NCBI GenBank assembly: GCA_027923505.1
Contig: BROI01000006.1
Span: 558,001 to 622,000 of the forward strand
DNA: 64,000 nt
Direction: 5' to 3'
DNA from: Mayamaea pseudoterrestris
Taxonomy: Eukaryota
Below are positions 9,927-37,698 of this stretch, in pieces; within the stretch, counting starts at the first letter, position 1, and each line of letters begins with the position of its first letter. The position numbers were made by a program, and so were the translations under genes. The notes under the pieces are model-generated. The model made no database searches. It was not told the origin of the DNA and saw only the letters and a list, made by a program, of their open reading frames with translations.

Positions 9927-11015
9927 ATGACAACTCACGACCATCATCAGCAAACTCGCCCTAGCTTGGCAAATTACCTTTTCGAAAACAGTCACAACGT
10001 CTTTTTACTAGACGGCGGAACAGGCGAAGAACTCTTTCGTCATGGCGTTCCAGACGACCGAACGCACTGGAGTGCCGAGGCTCTCATGGATCCCAACTAT
10101 CATTCAATATTATACCAGGTCCATGACTCCTTTCTGCAGGCTGGATCAAGTGCTGTCACGACGAATAGCTACGGATGTGTTCCTGGCGTTGGATTTACGA
10201 TAGAAGAACTGCAAGGCCTCTGCGCAACGGCTGGAAGGATTGCTCGTAGTGTTGTTCATGACGAACAATCAAACGCGCCAAGACCACTATACGTTTTGGG
10301 AAGCCTTGGTCCACTCGTCGAGTCGTATCGAGCTGATACAGTCATGGAGCATGAGCAAGGTGTATTTTACTATGAAACCATGTGCAGCGCCATGCTACCC
10401 TTTGTGGATTGCTTTTTGGCGGAAACCATGAGCTCGGTGGAGGAAGCCACGCAAGCGATTGACGCCATATCAAGAATCAGTGAACAAACAACTGATCCGC
10501 AGCAACAACTGCCTTGCATGGTTTCATTTTCGTTGCAATCTGCATCAGCGCGACTATGGTCGGACGAATCTCCCTGCCATGCGTTGGATCAAATCTTGGA
10601 GTACTGCAACACCAAACAAGTGCAGCTGCTGGGAGTTCTCTTTAATTGCGCCACGCCGGAAGCAATCACGTGGGCTCTCGAGGAGATGCACAACCATGAG
10701 CAACTACGCAAACAGCTGCAGCGGCAGCGTGTTCGTCTCGGCGCCTACGCCAATCGACTCACACCCGTGCCATCCAATTGGAGCTTGGCAACACACTTCA
10801 ACGCACCACAGCCACTCCGCACCGATCTTGATCCAAATCGATACTATAACGACTTTGTGAAGCACTGGGTGACAAATTTGGGCGTTGGAATAGTCGGAGG
10901 GTGCTGCGGCGTGACGCCTGAGCACGTTTCACTGCTGCGAGACAAACTACTGGTGGGGCCGCGGCAGACGCAGCAATTAACCGAATGCTCAACGCAATCC
11001 TTGATTCTGTGTTAG
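9927..11015 (+). CDS. Homocysteine S-methyltransferase family protein (HMT/MmuM/BHMT-like)
   Basis: LLDGGTGEEL, VHDSFLQAGS, GSLGPLVESY, LAETMS, Zn ligands LFNC and GGCCG, GAYAN; first ATG at 9927. Confidence 0.88.
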   Translation: MTTHDHHQQTRPSLANYLFENSHNVFLLDGGTGEELFRHGVPDDRTHWSAEALMDPNYHSILYQVHDSFLQAGSSAVTTNSYGCVPGVGFTIEELQGLCATAGRIARSVVHDEQSNAPRPLYVLGSLGPLVESYRADTVMEHEQGVFYYETMCSAMLPFVDCFLAETMSSVEEATQAIDAISRISEQTTDPQQQLPCMVSFSLQSASARLWSDESPCHALDQILEYCNTKQVQLLGVLFNCATPEAITWALEEMHNHEQLRKQLQRQRVRLGAYANRLTPVPSNWSLATHFNAPQPLRTDLDPNRYYNDFVKHWVTNLGVGIVGGCCGVTPEHVSLLRDKLLVGPRQTQQLTECSTQSLILC

Positions 11016-28201: not shown

Positions 28202-28917
28202 CATGCGAGTAGAGCGACTCGGTGTAAATTGGGATTAGAAAGCCAGTTAAGCTTTATTCGTCTTGATTTTTTGTATTCACGGAAATAGCGCATCCATTTG
28301 TAGCGGCAATGCTTCATTACAACCATGCTCCTACTACCGCAGTAGGTTAGAGCAATGCACATGTTGCCTCCCTCTATCCAGATCCTTGCTGCCAATCTAG
28401 ATACTTCCGCTACAACTGCAGTGTTCCATCGAGGAGCAAGAGCGTCGGTCGGTATGAAGAGGCAACACCGTCACTCTGACAAGTGACCATGCTGGGACAG
28501 GGAGCAGAGCAAAGAAGTTGCCCATTGACATTCCTCGTGTCTAATACTCTGAGGCACTACATTGTGCCAGATGGATGTGAGATTTACCACCCGCAATCAG
28601 ATGAAGCCGAGCAGTTCAAGCTGCAGTGTTAGCTACCGAAAGTCGGACACTCGAGCCATGCGACCTTTCTCAAAACCGTTGCGACGTCTTGCACGTTCGC
28701 CTATTTCGGACGACGGACGCGCGTCACGTTCCGAACCGCTCGCCATGGAGATGAGCATTTCGACCAAGGGCCAGCATCAAGGAAAGCAAGAGGTTCAAGG
28801 CTTGAAACAGACGTGCAGCATAAGAATCAAGCGAATCGGCTGACAGCTTGTTGGTTTTGCGAAGAAATTTCTTCTCTATTTGCTACCGCTATTTGAGTAA
28901 GCGTTGATCGCATCAAC

Positions 28918-31900
28918 ATGAGCTCGCCGCCGCCCAAGCCAAAGAAACTGCACCCCAGGCTGCTCTTCGACTACGACAAGGTTCCACCCAAGCCGCAGTT
29001 TGAACCGCCCCTTCCCACCTCGGATGCCGCAATCAACCATGTTCCGAATCCCTACAAGAACTCGAGTCTGGTGCATGAAAAGATTCAAGCCATTCGCGAG
29101 CGCAGCACCATTAGTGGAAACCGACGCGACGAGATTGATTGGAACCAGCAAGAATCACTAGCGACTGATAACCATCCTGCCGCCTTTCCATACTTTGTGC
29201 GAGGCCGCGATAGTGTACGCTCGTACTTGAACGAGTTGTTCCAAAAGCAGATTGTCATTTACGACGGCGCCATGGGCACCATGATTCAAAACTACTCGAA
29301 ACGCAACAAGCTGGAGGAGGAGGAGTATCGGGGCGACCGCTTTGCCGATTGGACCTGCGCCGTCAAGGGGAACAATGATATGCTGAGTATCTCCCAGCCG
29401 CAGATTATTAGTAACATTTACCGCGGCTACTTGGAGGAGGCTGGCTCCAACTTGATTGGAACAAACACCTTTTCGTCAACCACCATTGCCATGGCTGATT
29501 ACGCCATGGAGGCCTATGCCTACGAGTTGAACTATGAAGGCGCCCGCTTGGCGCGAGAAGCTTGTGATGCTGTCACTGCCATGGATCCCACCAAGCCCCG
29601 GTTTGTGGTGGGAGCCATTGGTCCTACCAACAGGACTGGGTCTATTTCTCCGAGTGTGGAGGATCCTGCCGCTCGTAATGTCACCTTTGATGAGTTGGTG
29701 GAAACATACTTTGAGCAAGTGGTTGGATTGGTGGATGGAGGATCGGATATTCTCATGGTGGAGACCATTTTTGATACATTGAACGCCAAGGCGGCGCTTT
29801 ACGCGATTGGCGAGTTTTTGGAGATGAGTGGACTTGATATTCCAGTCTTTGTGTCTGGGACACTGGTGGACCAGTCGGGACGAACACTATCTGGTCAAAC
29901 TGGAGAAGCCTTTTACGTTTCTATTCGTCATGCCAGACCATTCTGCGTCGGTTTGAACTGCGCTCTGGGAGCCTCGCACATGAAACCCTTTGTCGAGCGC
30001 CTTTCCAAAGCTGCCGAATGCTACGTTCACGTGTACTCGAACGCTGGTCTTCCCAACGCCATGGGTGGTTATGATGACACTCCTGCAACCATGGCGGAGC
30101 AAAACAAGGTTTTCTTTGAGAATGGATGGCTCAATATGGTTGGCGGCTGCTGCGGGTCGACGCCTCCTCACATTAAAGCCATTGCAGACGTTGCTAAAGA
30201 GTTTGCGCCGCGGAAACTGCCCGATCTCGGTCGCCCAAAAATGTGGCTGAGTGGACTTGAAGACTTAAAGGTGGAAGACTCGCATAACCACCTTGGTCTG
30301 CCGTTTTTGAACGTTGGTGAGCGGTGCAACATTGCCGGCAGCATCAAGTTTAAAAAGCTCATGATGGCTGGAGATTATGGAGCGGCAATGGATATTGCCA
30401 AGCAGCAAGTTGAGGATGGCGCCAATGTGATTGATATCAATGTTGACGACGGCATGCTGGATGGCCTTGCAGCGATGCAGAAATTTGTCAAGATTGCCGT
30501 TACGGAGCCAGAGATTGCCAAGGTCCCTTTCATGTTGGACGCTTCGAAATTTGAGATTGTCCTGGCTGGCCTTAAATGGTGCCAAGGAAAGTGCATTGTG
30601 AATTCTATCTCGCTCAAAGTTGGAGAGGAATTGTTTATAGAGCATGCAACCCTCTTGAAGAAGCATGGTGCTGCTGTAGTGGTCATGGCCTTTGACGAAG
30701 AAGGGCAAGCAGCCACCGAAGAAGAGAAGGTTCGCATTTGCAAGCGCTCCTATGATATACTGGTGGACAGAGTTAAGTTTCCTCCGGAGGATATCATTTT
30801 TGACCCAAACGTGCTGACCATCGGTACGGGTATGGAAGAGCATGCCAACTATGGCGTAGACTTTTTGAGGGCAACCAAGCGCATCAAGGAGGTGTGCCCC
30901 TACGTTAAGATTAGTGGAGGCATCTCCAACCTTTCCTTTGGTTTTCGCGGTGTGACGAAGGTTCGCGAGTCGATTCATGCCGTGTTCCTGCACCATGCGA
31001 TTCTGGAATATGGCATGGACGTTGGAATTGTAAATGCGAAGGAGATGCTTGGCATTGAGGACCTTCAGAATGATATGCTCACGCTCTGCGAGAATTTGGT
31101 GTTTAACAAGACGCCAGCTGCGACTGACGACATGCTCGAGCGAACAGAATACGAGCGTGCTGTCATGGATGCTAAGAAGAAGGGACATCCGCCTCCTCGA
31201 AAGCCGCGAGGAACTGTCACAAATCTACCGCGCTTGACCTTTCCTTATGACGAAAAGGCGCCCACGCCGCAATTTGAGCCTCCGACTCCCACGTCGGATG
31301 CTGCTATAAATCATTGGCCGAATCCGTACATGAACTCGAGCTTGGTGCACGAAAAAATCCAGGCTATTCGCCACAGGAGCACTATGACTGGAGAACGCCG
31401 GCAACAGATTGACTGGGCTCAAGCAGGTGACTCCGCACCAGCTACATTTCCGTATTTCGTCAGAGGGCGTGACAGCGTCAGAACGTACCTGAACGAGCTT
31501 TTCAAACGACAAATTGTTATATACGATGGAGCTATGGGAACCATGATTCAAAACTACGCCAAGAGGAACAAGCTCGAGGAGGAGGAATACCGAGGAGAGC
31601 GATTTAAGGATTGGAGTTGTAATGTGAAAGGAAACAATGACATGCTTAGTATTTCGCAGCCTCAAATCATCAGCGCTATCTACAGAGGGTATCTTAAGGA
31701 AGCTGGATCGAACCTTATTGGGACGAATACATTTTCATCGACGACGATTGCCATGGCGGACTACAAGATGGAAGCTTTTGCATACGAATTAAATTACGAA
31801 GGGGCTCGGTTGGCTCGTGAGGCTTGCGATGCAGTGACGGCTATGGACCCGACGAAGCCTCGCTTTGTTGTCGGAGCTATCGGGCCGACGAATCGAACTG

Positions 31901-34900
31901 GATCGATTTCGCCCAGTGTTGAAGACCCGGCGGCGCGAAACGTAACATTTGACGAGCTTGTCGAGACTTACTTTGAGGAAGTTGTTGGTTTAGTTGACGG
32001 TGGGTCGGATATTTTAATGGTGGAGACCATCTTTGATACTTTAAACGCAAAGGCAGCCTTGTATGCTATTGGGGAATTTTTGGAAATGAGTGGTCTTGAT
32101 ATCCCGGTCTTCATTTCGGGAACGTTGGTTGATCAGTCTGGGCGGACGCTTTCTGGCCAGACTGGAGAAGCTTTTTATGTGTCTGTCCGACACGCGAAGC
32201 CGTTCTGTGTTGGTCTCAATTGTGCCTTAGGAGCATCACATATGAAGCCATTTGTTGAGCGACTGTCAAAGGCAGCGGAATGTTATGTCCATGTTTACTC
32301 AAATGCGGGGCTGCCTAATGCGATGGGAGGATATGATGATACGCCTGCTACCATGGCCGAACAGAACAAGGTATTTTTCGAGAATAGCTGGCTCAACATG
32401 GTCGGGGGTTGCTGTGGCTCAACACCGCCCCATATTAAGGCCATTGCCGAGGAGGCCCGTAACTTTGCTCCTCGCAAACTACCGCACCTTGGTCGTCCGA
32501 AAATGTGGCTGAGCGGCTTGGAGGATTTGAAAGTGGAAGATACCCACAATCATCTTGGCTTACCATTCTTGAACGTTGGCGAACGGTGCAACATTGCGGG
32601 CAGCATCAAGTTTAAGAAGCTGATGATGGCTGGCGACTACGGTGCCGCGATGGATATTGCCAAGCAACAGGTTGAAGATGGGGCGAACGTTATCGACATT
32701 AATGTCGATGATGGTATGCTTGACGGCCTTGCGGCCATGCAAAAGTTTGTAAAAATTGCGGTGACTGAACCAGAAATTGCGAAAGTGCCGTTTATGCTGG
32801 ATGCCTCCAAGTTTGAGATTGTTCTCGCTGGGTTGAAGTGGTGTCAAGGGAAGTGCATCGTTAACTCCATCTCATTGAAGGTTGGCGAAGCGCTTTTCAT
32901 TGAGCATGCTACTCTCCTAAAGAAACACGGAGCCGCCGTCGTCGTGATGGCTTTTGATGAAGAAGGCCAGGCTGCAACAGAAGAGGAGAAAGTCCGCATC
33001 TGCAAGCGCTCGTATGATATTCTTGTGGACAAGGTCAAGTTTCCACCCGAGGACATTATCTTTGATCCTAATGTGTTAACTATTGGGACTGGCATGGAGG
33101 AGCATTCGAATTATGGTGTTGACTTTCTTAAAGCAACGAAGCGCATTAAAGAAGTCTGCCCATATGTGAAGATCAGTGGTGGCATTTCCAACCTGTCATT
33201 TGGGTTCCGAGGGGTGACAAAGATTCGGGAATCCATTCATGCTGTCTTTCTCCATCACGCCATTTTGGAGTATGGCATGGATGTTGGTATCGTTAATGCT
33301 AAGGAAATGCTTGCTTTGGACGAAGTCGAGCCTGAACTTCTTGAAGCGTCCGAGAATCTGATATTTAATAAGAATCCTGAAGCGACTGACGTTATGCTTG
33401 AGCTCACAAAGAAGGAGAAAGAGGCTATGGAAGCGCTTAAGAAGGGGGGTGGTGCTCCGAAAGAAGCCAAGTCGGCTTGGCGCGAGCTTGAGCCGAAGAA
33501 GCGACTCGAACATTCTCTCATCAATGGAATATCCGAGTACATTGATGCGGACGTGGAAGAGGCGCGACAGCTTTGCAGCAGACCACTTGAAGTTATTGAA
33601 GGCCCCTTGATGGATGGCATGAATATTGTCGGCGACTTGTTTGGTTCTGGAAAGATGTTTTTGCCTCAGGTCATTAAATCGGCTCGCGTGATGAAGAAGG
33701 CGGTTGCATATCTGCTTCCTTTCATGGACAAAGAGAAGAGGGATAACTTGATAGCTCAAGGACTGGACCCGGACTCGGTCGATGAAAATGACGATTCCAA
33801 TTTCAACGGCAAAGTTCTGATGGCCACGGTCAAAGGCGATGTCCATGACATTGGCAAAAATATCGTCGCAGTCGTGCTTGGATGCAACAATTATAAAGTG
33901 TTTGATATCGGCGTCATGTGCTCGACGGAGCTGATTCTCGAAAAGGCTCGCGAATACGATGTGGACGTCATAGGGCTCTCGGGCCTTATCACACCATCGC
34001 TAGATGAGATGGTTGTAGTTGCAAAAGAGCTTTCGAAACGCGGGTTTAAGCAACCATTGCTGATTGGCGGCGCGACGACGTCAAAGATGCACACAGCTGT
34101 GAAAATCTCGCCGAATTATTCAACTGCCGAGCATCCAGTCATCCATGTTCTTGACGCGTCGCGTTCTGTGACTGTCGTCTCTTCGCTGCTGAACGAGAAC
34201 AAGCGAGACTTCGTGGAAGACTTGAAGGAAGAGTACAACGAACTGCGCGAGGACTATTATGCTGGACTTGAGGACCGATATTTCCTGACGCACGAGAAGG
34301 CTATGGAGCAGAAGATGCCAATTGACTTTACTGCGCGACCCCCTGCGCCTTCGCCCAACCAAATTGGTGTGACTGTCATTGACTCGGTAAGCCTCGTTGA
34401 CATCGTCCCTTTTATCGACTGGAATCCCTTCTTTCAGACTTGGGAGCTTCGTGGCCGCTACCCAAATCGTGGCTACCCCAAGATTTTTAATGATGAATCG
34501 GTCGGTTCCGAGGCCAAGAAGCTTTTTAACGATGCGCAAGCATTGCTGAACAAGATTATCGCCGATGGTTCAATGAACGTGAAAGGAGTTGTTGGTTTGT
34601 TTCCGGCAAACAGTTCGAATGGCGGCGAAGATGTTGATGTGTTTGCAAGCGAAGCCGAGCGCGAGGCTGGCAACAAACTTGCTACCTTTTGCATGCTTCG
34701 TCAGCAGGCCGAGAAAGAGTCCTCAGACCCCTACCTGTCTCAAGCGGATTTTGTCGCTCCACCTGGCATCAAGGACTATCTTGGAATGTTTGCCGTTTCT
34801 TGTTTCGGTTGCGAAGCTCTCGTGAATAAGTTCGAAAGTGAGAATGACGACTACAACAAGATTATGTCACAGGCACTTGCGGATCGTTTTGTTGAAGCCT

Positions 34901-35289
34901 TTGCAGAGTACTTACATCGCGAAATTCGAATGAAACTGTGGGGCTACGCCCCCAACGAGCAGTTGAACGAGGTTGATTTGTTAAAGATTAAGTACGACGG
35001 CATTCGCCCTGCTCCTGGATACCCGTCTCAGCCTGATCATACCGAGAAACTTACAATGTGGCAGGTACTGCAAGCGGAAGAGCTGGCTGGGATAAAGTTG
35101 TCCGAGTCTCTTAGCATGGTTCCTGCCGCGTCGGTTTCTGCGCTTGTTTTTGCTCATCCAGATTCGGAGTATTTTGCTGTAGGCCAGATTGGTAAGGACC
35201 AAGTAGAAAGCTACGCTGCACGCAAGGGAATGCCGCTTGACCAATGTGAAAGGTGGCTGTCGCCAATTCTAAACTACGAAAGAGATTAA
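28918..35289 (+). CDS. METH: Cobalamin-dependent methionine synthase with tandemly duplicated homocysteine- and folate-binding modules (2123 aa)
   Basis: [29 protein letters not shown] and SNLSFGFRG each occur twice. [13 protein letters not shown] cap, DVHDIGKN B12 motif and RPAPGYP reactivation domain occur once. Confidence 0.97.
28966..33400 (+). repeat. Intragenic tandem duplication: unit 1 ~28966-31140, unit 2 ~31240-33400, offset about 2262 nt
   Basis: Matching motifs are offset by 2262 nt (IVIYDG at 29251 and 31513; GGCC at 30142 and 32404). Protein near-identical, many third-position differences. Confidence 0.95.
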
Positions 35290-35377
35290 GTTGGTAATCA
35301 CAACTAATACGTCTATCGCATGCTACGTATCTAGCCTGTCTTTGTAGCGAGACTATGTAGTATTTACGGAAGCAAAA

Positions 35378-37698
35378 TTAAGGTTCCAATTTCTTTCTCG
35401 CCGGCCGTCGCTGCGAGAAGAGGTCATACTGATCCGATGTGACAGCATGCTGGAGTAAAGTTTTTCGCTCCACGTGAAAGTCTCCTTTGACAATTGCAAA
35501 GGTATTGTCGCGAAGATCCAAAGGTATTGCTGAGTCCCACAGAGCACGGACAAAACCGGGGTTTGCGTTGTGTACTGTTCCGTCGTCTGAGTGCGCGTCA
35601 AGTGTATTGTCGATAGCTTCTGTCTCGTCCTCGTCGTACCCACCTTCATCGCCGCTGTTCTCTTCATCGTCGATTTCATCTGCTCCTTCCTCTTCCTCAG
35701 TAATAGGATCAGGTCGCACCACCGCATCATCTTCTTCAAACGAATCAAGCGGACTTTCGTCGCTTTCTAGACTTGAGTTACGAGAGTGCTTACTAGAAGC
35801 CTTGAGTGCCGCAGCTGCGGCCCCATGGTTAAAGACGGAACCGAGTGTTTCCCATGTTTCCAAGCTGCCGTCCGCCGAGTCAAGCGTCGCCATTTCAACC
35901 TCGTAGCGTTCCGTCGAACACTTGCTTGCGTCGTCCTTCCAAAATCGACCACCACGCCCAACGCGTCGAGTATGCCACTTCATGGGCATTTGATTGAGCG
36001 ACCTCGTGCGCGCTTCGACCGCCTGTGGCGAATAATCGCTGTGCGGGAACACATAAATGTGCACCACAGCCGCCACAAACATTTCAATGCAAATCATGTA
36101 GTCCTGAATGCCCTTGGCAACATCTTCCGCCGACAAGTTGTACTGCTCGCCAACGGTGTAGCTCGGCATCATTCCTGCCTGGTATAGCATACTAATGGCG
36201 ACACTTTGCCACCATGTGAAAAAGACCAGCGCCTTGACAGAAAGGAACTTCCCAACCGGATTAATCGCGCTCAGCTCGTTGTGCGTCGCATAGTAGAAGA
36301 TAATCAAGCAGTACAGCGCCCAGCATTGACTGAGATTTGTGAATATACAGATATACAGATACGCTCCCTTCCACGAAAAATCTCCTTCCTTGTACAAGCC
36401 GCGCCATTCCAGTAGTAGCACCAGCACCGAGCACAGAATTTTGAGCAAAACATACTGCAAAACACCAAACTTGCACTTTATGAAAAAGGGCGACTTCCAA
36501 TGAATCTGCTTCAGCGCCCGCCGGCGTCCCGACTCGTCGTCGTGCTCGTACACGGTCCTTCGCACCGGCTGACCCATGAGCCACGGCTTGACGCACCACT
36601 GAAGTCCCCACATGTGGGCACCTCGCGTCGGGCTCTTGTCCTTGAGCATTAGCACGAGCGCTTCCTCGCCGCCAAGTACTTGAATGAGGAACTGCAAAAA
36701 CGAGTAGAGAACATAGGATTCGTAAAAATCGCGGAGCGTTTCAATGTAAATTGCTTTATTGTGAAACCTCATGGCAAGCCAACTTTCAACCGAATATATG
36801 GGTACCATGAAGAGGATCCTAACAACATAGACTTGAACGTGCGGTTGATTATAGTTTGCCAGCTGCAATATAAAGAGATGTGAAACGTTGGTGGAGGTGA
36901 GTTGAAACCCGCGACGATGCAATCAACTCGAGGTGAGGTTCGCTCGTCCTCTCTGCAAGCCTTCAGCATCTTCTATCAGGACAGACGCAATTACTACAAT
37001 CGCAATCAAATTCACGTACATGCCCGACAATGCCCCACATGCTAATGGGAAAACCCATGAGTACAAAGGCGCCAGCCGAAAACCACGCGATTAAATGAGG
37101 GTCAGTGCTGCGAATGCAAGAGGCACGAACATGTGAGACGTAAGAGCGAAGCAAATTCAACTTCCTAAACTTGTTCGGCTCGCAAAAGTAGACAAGACTC
37201 AAATTCTACGAATCTGATAGTCATCAAAAGTCGCGTTCGTCATTCAGTTACATACCCATGATTGAACAACTCGTACGAGTACCAAACAACGGCAGCCGCC
37301 AGACTGACAAAGGTACTCCACAGCAGCATTTTGGCCATGCAGTTCATGCACGAAAGGGTCGACTTGGATCGACAGCAGGCGCATGGCAGGCGCTGCGGCT
37401 TGACTTGGACCGAGTGCTGGTTGTGACGCTTGCGGCGTCGCTTTTCCGTCGTTTTGCGAGAGCGAAAGAGTGATTGCTTATTGTGAGTCGGGTTTTCGAC
37501 TAGTGCAGACGTAGATGAAGATGAGGGAGGTCCTAGCAGAGGCTGCAGTATTTGTTCGCTCGCAGTTTGGTCAATTTCGTCGTCTTCCTGGGGGTTCCGG
37601 CTGCTGTTGGCGCTGTCAGTCGTAGCAGCGATGGCGATATTTGCTTCGGAAGGCAGTCCAGCAGCCATCAAATCCTCCTCATTCATGGCCTGAAGCAT
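35378..37698 (-). CDS. TMEM184 / organic solute transporter alpha family protein; 3 exons, introns 37108-37255 and 36863-37019
   Basis: VVRILFMVPIYS, LRDFYESYVLYSF, KFGVLQY, KFLSVKALVFFTWWQ, QDYMICIEM; GT-AG introns keep the frame. Confidence 0.9.

Follow-up and report, generated by a model that had tools for sequence, protein, structure and literature searches.

In a stretch of 64,000 nucleotides of the Mayamaea pseudoterrestris assembly (contig BROI01000006.1, positions 558,001 to 622,000; hereafter the window), we describe a gene for cobalamin-dependent methionine synthase (MetH/METH) whose substrate half, made of an extension strap, a homocysteine (Hcy) barrel, a folate (Fol) barrel and a tail helix, stands twice in tandem ahead of one single cap, cobalamin and reactivation half. 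Judged by its sequence, the product is a genuine MetH of a diatom-type nuclear genome, and both of its substrate units are intact, individually conserved and catalytically equipped. This architecture has been noted before and is uncharacterised, and it is much more widespread than reported, with related proteins of two to four units (2x to 4x) forming a broad algal and labyrinthulomycete family and not a one-off.

Gene layout, continuity and predicted structure

The gene consists of a single open frame of 2123 codons at window 28918..35289 on the forward strand, starting with ATG, free of internal stops and encoding a protein with a predicted mass of 235.0 kDa. Its features, with domain boundaries obtained by using the window's own domains as queries, are the following:

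28918..35289 (+): whole MetH gene, an intronless open reading frame (ORF) of 2123 amino acids (aa), stop included in the coordinates, based on the ORF, Pfam, NCBIfam and contigs
28918..29232 (+): unit 1 N-terminal extension, aa 1-105, predicted as an ordered strap, without Pfam family or solved counterpart
29233..30207 (+): unit 1 homocysteine barrel (Hcy1), aa 106-430, with GLNC at aa 345 and GGCC at aa 409
30238..31152 (+): unit 1 folate (pterin) barrel (Fol1), aa 441-745, with DINVDDG, NSIS, FDPN and SNLSFGFRG
31153..31494 (+): inter-unit linker of 114 aa, aa 746-859, based on motifs, tails and models
31495..32469 (+): unit 2 homocysteine barrel (Hcy2), aa 860-1184, with GLNC at aa 1099 and GGCC at aa 1163
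32500..33411 (+): unit 2 folate barrel (Fol2), aa 1195-1498
33415..33483 (+): last-unit tail, aa 1500-1522, ending in ...AWR and running into the cap domain
33478..34227 (+): cap and cobalamin-binding domain, aa 1521-1770, single copy, with DxHxxG at aa 1641
34363..35247 (+): reactivation (S-adenosylmethionine, AdoMet) domain, aa 1816-2110, single copy, with RPAPGYP at aa 2030

An earlier sequence-only reading of this DNA had proposed an intronless ORF of 2123 aa, in which two extension, homocysteine and folate units precede the cap, B12 and reactivation domains, and the frame, the Pfam matches and the motifs all bear this layout out. S-methyl_trans and Pterin_bind each matched the protein in two stretches, while B12-binding_2 (aa 1528-1599), B12-binding (aa 1631-1725) and Met_synt_B12 (aa 1826-2104, profile positions 2-273 of 273) matched once each. 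Similarly, the Zn ligands and folate motifs that had been claimed for both copies are indeed found twice, as GLNC (aa 345 and 1099), GGCC (409 and 1163), DINVDDG (506 and 1260), NSIS (562 and 1316), FDPN (628 and 1382) and SNLSFGFRG (670 and 1424), and the motifs of the C-terminal half, the lower-ligand motif DxHxxG of the Rossmann-type B12 domain (as DVHDIG, aa 1641) and RPAPGYP (aa 2030), occur once. We take the cysteines of GLNC and GGCC to be the three Zn ligands, following the assignment in E. coli MetH.

Regarding family membership, the protein scored 2451 bits against TIGR02082 (curated cut-off 1010.85) and 2740 bits against PRK09490 (cut-off 1497). Since TIGR02082 is covered whole (profile positions 2-1182 of 1182) by its best stretch, aa 863-2088, unit 2 and the C-terminal half together make up a complete canonical MetH, to which unit 1 is extra. 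The canonical 1:1:1:1 stoichiometry of modules is thus replaced by two homocysteine and two folate modules, a departure in module count that defines the variant while membership in the MetH family is kept.

The physical reality of this layout was assessed over 28700-35500 by comparing contigs of four runs (X1 to X4) from two studies, X1, X3 and X4 belonging to one of them. A 21-kb contig of X1 and a 17-kb contig of X2, the latter possibly being the source of the window DNA, cover the full stretch with 0 and 1 differences, respectively. The contigs of X3 (6548 nt, 28769-35316, from ~149 nt before the ATG to 27 nt past the stop) and X4 (6487 nt, 28773-35259, from ~145 nt before the ATG to 30 nt short of the stop) are gene-length and look transcript-like, the kind of library not being on record. 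No joint, insertion or deletion was found across 28700-35500 in the contigs of the four runs, and the continuity across the junction on which the earlier reading depended holds in contigs of both studies, which span both units. Two-unit homologues derived from transcriptomes were also retrieved, namely P0025 and P0037 (Mucochytrium quahogii). At window position 31696, in unit 2, the X2 and X3 contigs carry G in place of the A of X1 and X4, which is a strain or allele polymorphism.

These contigs bear on two alternative explanations of the doubling. An artefact of assembly or annotation, in which a tandem copy was collapsed or falsely joined, has a practically negligible probability: nothing in its favour was found, an assembler cannot mistake one unit for the other, given that 27% of their nucleotides differ, the contigs of two studies agree, and dozens of homologues have the same layout. 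The gene could instead give rise to two isoforms, an in-frame GT..AG interval of 2,280 nt (31162-33441, phase 0) being spliced out to leave a canonical one-unit (1x) MetH. Such a GT..AG pair does exist, its removal would take out almost exactly one unit, and Bromke et al. 2015 (PMC4523565) describe for Phaeodactylum tricornutum an old (Phatr2) METH model that hides an in-frame '2,280-long intron' encoding a second copy of the MetH and pterin-binding domains. However, GT..AG pairs at this spacing number 16 against 12.7 expected by chance, no joint appears in the four runs, the gene-length contigs of X3 and X4 are continuous (although contigs drop rare variants, such as a minor isoform), and, according to Bromke et al. 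2015 (PMC4523565), expressed sequence tags cover the supposed P. tricornutum intron. We therefore consider this splicing very unlikely.

AlphaFold2 models were obtained for aa 441-1540 (predicted local distance difference test, pLDDT, 80.6; predicted template modelling score, pTM, 0.70) and aa 1-770 (pLDDT 83.3, pTM 0.87). The homocysteine-folate module matches the N-terminal half of human MetH (9ssp, 4ccz) with a template modelling (TM) score of 0.91 normalised to the target and 53% identity. The extension of ~100 aa ahead of it has no Pfam family, and matches in the PDB begin at aa 98-103, leaving it with no solved counterpart. It is nonetheless modelled with confidence in two settings: pLDDT is 81-96 where it serves as linker (aa 771-860), and 92-96 at the start of the protein, where no preceding unit was modelled (aa 11-60). 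This order in both settings marks it as an intra-unit strap and not a floppy tether. The tail of the folate barrel is modelled as a long helix (aa 735-755), and only the Pro-rich junction is poorly ordered, with pLDDT below 50 at aa 757-770 in the aa 1-770 model and of 67-76 at aa 751-770 in the aa 441-1540 model. Besides the end of the internal-tail helix, the linker (aa 746-859) contains the Pro-rich hinge (PPPRKPR, aa 758) and a second N-terminal extension. Overall, the units are predicted to be rigid, self-contained modules joined by a Pro-rich hinge of ~15 residues and followed by a canonical cobalamin half.

Unit number, junction and core evolution across the family

The 120 best homologues and the window protein, 121 proteins in all, were dissected with the window domains; ranking by bit score favours multi-unit proteins, and the resulting counts give presence, not prevalence. 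Complete 2x proteins account for 50 of the 121, to which are added 28 2x proteins without the activation end and 13 apparently N-truncated ones; 13 are complete 3x proteins, two are truncated 3x proteins, two are 4x proteins (Bryopsis and Haematococcus), seven are complete 1x proteins (1360-1367 aa), and the last six are other fragments or odd layouts. None of the 120 homologues is more than 90% identical to the window protein, the top full-length matches standing at ~82%. Most of the homologues have two to four units, and the named sources are diatoms (Epithemia, Nitzschia inconspicua), labyrinthulomycetes (Hondaea, Mucochytrium), pelagophytes (Chrysophaeum, 3x; Aureococcus), chlorophytes (Chlorella, Volvox, Chlamydomonas incerta, C. 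eustigma, Dunaliella, Trebouxia, Myrmecia and Botryococcus, the last 3x) and a dinoflagellate (Polarella, 3x).

Across these proteins, the catalytic residues are conserved irrespective of the position of the unit. The Cys of GLNC is kept in 109/110 non-last, 109/109 last and 7/7 single units, and the first Cys of GGCC in 110/110 non-last and 109/109 last units. In addition, the D/N of DINVDD, the N of NSIS, the D/N of DPN and the R of FGFRG are kept in essentially all units.

Single-unit forms are also documented. The 150 best relatives of one unit in a library clustered at 50% identity are nearly all one-stretch proteins of ~1150-1290 aa, in a library where multi-unit algal forms collapse into few representatives and which provides no copy-number census. 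Scanning metagenome DNA returned 22 loci, mostly 1x genes or fragments, two of which, L001 (an uninterrupted ORF of 1377 aa on an 81.5-kb contig) and L006, are intact 1x genomic genes. Among close stramenopile relatives, the unit number is 1 (P0092, P0105, L001), 2 or 3 (P0001, P0002, P0006, P0089), and this variation around a common junction motif is what unequal crossing-over would produce.

Other layouts were observed further away. Among chlorophyte 3x proteins (P0085, P0073, P0077, P0075, P0087), several open with a long hydrophobic, transmembrane-like stretch before unit 1, which is either a membrane anchor or a gene-model artefact; the lead before unit 1 is only ~36-39 aa in Chlorella and Bryopsis. 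Four distant proteins of the representative library (33-40% identity, 1243-2076 aa) have repeated substrate domains, with two S-methyl_trans and two Pterin_bind stretches in P0135, P0183 and P0213, and one S-methyl_trans and two Pterin_bind stretches in P0143. No B12-binding or activation domain was detected in these four at E<=1e-5, and P0183 additionally has a KR domain; they may be cobalamin-domain-free tandem homocysteine-folate proteins or truncated models.

Within the window gene, where direct DNA repeats are spaced 2262 and 2274 nt, unit 1 (aa 4-764) and unit 2 (aa 759-1518) are identical at 673 of 757 aligned residues (88.9%), and their homocysteine-folate cores at 594 of 639 (93.0%); the initial description of the copies as near-identical in protein is corrected to these two values. 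At the nucleotide level, identity is 72.9%, and 36.5% at third positions. Nei-Gojobori counts gave a saturated proportion of synonymous differences (pS 0.93; Sd=474.0, S=509.3) and a low proportion of non-synonymous ones (pN 0.080; Nd=141.0, N=1761.7; dN, the corrected non-synonymous divergence, 0.085). This is the high dS (its synonymous counterpart) with low dN that the sequence-only reading anticipated, and the synonymous codon differences it quoted are real, lying at aa 111-118 and 865-872. Both units have therefore been under strong purifying selection for long enough to saturate synonymous sites. The lowest pS among 50-codon segments is at least 0.64, so that this genome has no recent conversion tract. 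Comparisons within the gene and between species are all saturated (pS ~0.7-0.9), and dS yields no dates. The 45 core differences between the two units fall on variable columns of the family (mean entropy 1.9 vs 0.71).

The synonymous likeness of the two units is slightly lower than expected by chance. Over 28927-33471, residues shared by the two units have identical four-fold sites in 44 of 233 cases (24.9% expected) and identical codons in 247 of 673, where permutation gives a mean of 270.7 (z = -2.25; 63 of 5000 permutations as low). The GC content at third positions is 0.583 for unit 1, compared with 0.513 for unit 2. This could be due to chance, to a drift of codon usage along the gene or to selection against repeat identity.

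At the scale of the family, cores and junctions tell different histories. In a tree of 226 units, the units of a protein are monophyletic in 76 of 91 multi-unit proteins; most of the 15 exceptions lie in small clades of 3-7 units, and those inspected show close relatives pairing position by position (P0038 with P0005). Two green-algal 3x proteins, P0077 and P0080, have a very divergent first unit. Among 74 2x proteins, no more than 0.5-3% of core columns distinguish one unit from the other, and the two metagenome loci out of 22 that gave a short two-unit overlap have units identical in DNA at 90% (L010, 296/329 nt) and at 82/91 positions (L014). By contrast, the tail after a non-last folate barrel (...ERTxYERAVxDAKKKGLPPPRKPR...) differs from that after the last one (...ELTxKEKEAxEAxKKGGG...SWRD): P.P.KP[RK] occurs in 68/131 internal vs 1/119 last tails, and the SWRD-type motif in 0/131 internal vs 112/119 last tails. 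The window fits this stramenopile pattern, its internal tail having PPPRKPR at aa 758 and its last tail AWRE at aa 1520.

Two trees, each of 192 stramenopile-type segments, give the same picture. With the 48-aa tails, the 'internal vs last' label needs 8 changes (shuffled mean 63.2, minimum 52), and the tails of a protein are sisters in only 2/82 proteins; with the 265-aa folate cores, the same label needs 81 changes, and the cores of a protein are sisters in 69/82. Tails cluster by position across stramenopiles, indicating an ancient junction, and cores cluster by species, indicating concerted evolution. We infer one old duplication junction, followed by homogenisation of the units from the N-extension to ~aa 715. 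Gene conversion and/or cycles of unequal crossing-over would account for this homogenisation, and would also yield the 1x and 3x relatives. The earlier proposal of an old duplication held by purifying selection stands as to the age of the junction and the low pN; across the family, the cores stay alike mainly through concerted evolution.

Two other scenarios were considered and rejected. An independent re-duplication in each lineage would have given the fresh copy a last-unit tail, while internal tails are position-specific and conserved. Subfunctionalisation of the unit cores was rejected as well: the only position-specific columns in the 74 2x proteins are aa 716, 720 and 723, and no position-specific core residue lies ahead of aa 716.

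Outside stramenopiles, green algae have a different linker of ~65 aa, with R[DE]DSTER after unit 1 vs CENATER after later units, and the linker of Polarella differs again from both types, which leaves either more than one origin of the multiplied units or linker divergence past recognition as the explanation.

As for the window itself, its two units and that of the 1x protein P0092 lie at similar distances from one another (93.0%, 92.0% and 93.7% identity) and form a near-trichotomy, in which informative sites split 3:2:1 and 18 states are common to all three vs other diatoms. This equidistance places the last homogenisation around the split of the window and P0092 lineages. The window pair is among the more diverged ones (tree distance 0.096 vs a median of 0.033), and its last homogenisation is old enough for synonymous saturation.

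Possible roles of the additional unit, significance and genomic surroundings

What the second unit contributes can be considered in the light of the modular functioning of MetH, a textbook enzyme whose cofactor domain moves from one substrate module to another. In the window protein, the one cobalamin domain, attached to the last folate barrel, would serve either unit by docking at its folate and homocysteine sites. In this way, the cofactor would more often meet a substrate-loaded, product-free site, and more methionine would be turned over per bound B12 and per reactivation domain. We regard the use of both units in cis by one cobalamin domain as evenly poised between true and false. More tentatively, two to four pre-loadable modules per cobalamin-reactivation half might raise methionine output per scarce B12, which would make the multi-module layout an adaptation of eukaryotes that scavenge B12. 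It is likewise conceivable, though rather doubtful, that selection for interchangeable modules keeps the cores homogenised while the ancient junction stays fixed.

Several points weigh against the sharing of one cobalamin by both units. The AlphaFold2 models, reported as pLDDT and pTM, are silent on the reach of the B12 domain to unit 1. The 1x genes of close relatives (P0092, 1367 aa, and L001) imply that the second unit is not indispensable in every lineage. P. tricornutum and Chlamydomonas, which have the multi-unit layout, possess MetE too, so that the layout is not tied to strict B12 auxotrophy.

The same 1x genes are relevant to the possibility that the distal unit is a passenger, an extra copy carried by repeat dynamics and adding little, with only the B12-adjacent unit catalysing. 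The 1x forms nest among 2x ones (P0092 beside the window, P0105 beside the P0038/P0005 clade), the seven complete 1x proteins and the intact 1x ORFs L001 and L006 indicate that loss is tolerated, and concerted evolution alone can keep repeats alike. However, pS is saturated in every 50-codon segment of the window gene, yet the core is 93% identical with a pN of 0.080, which indicates that each unit is conserved by its own selection; moreover, catalytic residues are kept in 109/110 non-last units, and the junction persists across diatoms, labyrinthulomycetes and pelagophytes. A mere passenger is accordingly an unlikely account of the extra unit.

The distal unit might also act apart from its own B12 domain, either in trans within an oligomer, on free cobalamin, or as a folate/homocysteine buffer. 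Its favourable evidence includes the predicted self-containment of the units on a flexible hinge and the four distant proteins described above, in which homocysteine/pterin stretches are repeated and no B12 domain was found at E<=1e-5. Furthermore, the isolated N-terminal fragment of E. coli MetH reportedly exchanges methyl groups with free cobalamin (Goulding, Postigo and Matthews 1997); if so, a direct tether to the cofactor is not required of a substrate module, which would count for the shared-cofactor reading as well. The lack of position-specific core divergence between first and last units in the 74 2x proteins argues against such a separate role, and no sign of oligomerisation was found, in an analysis that did not look for one. 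We consider this role distinctly improbable; cis use by one cobalamin domain remains our preferred reading.

MetH sets the vitamin B12 demand of a large share of marine phytoplankton, and a natural form with two to four modules is a ready-made experiment on whether turnover is limited by domain docking or by substrate loading and product release, as well as a possible molecular handle on algal B12 quotas. If the B12-economy reading were true, major primary producers of the ocean could tune their cellular B12 demand in evolution by changing the number of units. The family also provides an unusually clean example of concerted evolution inside one enzyme gene, with a fixed ancient junction.

The genes neighbouring MetH in the window are ordinary eukaryotic ones, encoding a UBC-type E2, an OST-alpha-like transporter, and KH-domain and AP2-domain proteins. 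Two antisense ORFs lie within the MetH gene, at 30265-31188 (-) (307 aa) and 33196-33846 (-) (216 aa); neither has a Pfam match, and both probably arise as a side effect of sense-strand codon composition. About 18 kb upstream on the same strand, at 9927-11015 (+), an ORF of 362 aa encodes a stand-alone homocysteine S-methyltransferase (PF02574, E 1.2e-45). Its low identity to the MetH homocysteine barrel (22%, 65/293) and scores under every NCBIfam cut-off mark it as a separate HMT/MmuM-like paralogue and not an offshoot of a MetH unit.

Relation to known systems

Canonical MetH (E. coli MetH, human MTR; TIGR02082/PRK09490) has the same five modules as the window protein, in the same order and with the same motifs. 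It differs in having one substrate module, whereas the window protein has an extra complete homocysteine-folate module in front, hence two per cobalamin, and each of its units bears an N-terminal strap of ~100 aa without solved counterpart, unlike canonical MetH.

The closest precedent is P. tricornutum METH (Phatr2 protein 23399 / Phatr3_J23399; PMC4523565), whose 2,280-nt 'intron' matches the geometry of the window gene (a unit period of 2262-2274 nt and a GT..AG interval of 2,280 nt), a likeness that does not establish gene identity. Bromke et al. 2015 (PMC4523565) wrote that the doubling is 'probably a result of a mutation-duplication' and 'has to be verified experimentally'. The sequence-only reading was unsure whether the architecture had been described: the doubling was thus already noted in P. 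tricornutum, where the accessible parts of PMC4523565 treat it as a single-species oddity, with no mention of the 2x-4x family, the conserved junction or concerted evolution. No other description of a doubled-module MetH was found in the searchable full-text literature, whose coverage leaves out most subscription journals. According to bioRxiv 10.1101/176008, non-synonymous polymorphisms have accumulated in MetH (Phatr3_J23399) in each of ten P. tricornutum accessions, a statistic that may deserve re-examination if the gene model treats one unit as an intron. More generally, a unit can be concealed as an 'intron' in older gene models, and published diatom METH lengths, expression counts and polymorphism statistics may rest on a wrong model.

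MetE is likewise a methionine synthase derived from a tandem duplication of a barrel, in an unrelated family. In MetE, the N-terminal barrel no longer has the catalytic residues and acts as a support for its C-terminal partner, whereas every METH unit of the present family keeps them. Finally, in split corrinoid systems (MtaABC-type; split MetH/MtgBCDE of marine roseobacters), modules likewise dock transiently on one corrinoid domain; these systems, however, rely on separate polypeptides and different donor modules, in contrast with the window protein, where identical modules are repeated in one chain.

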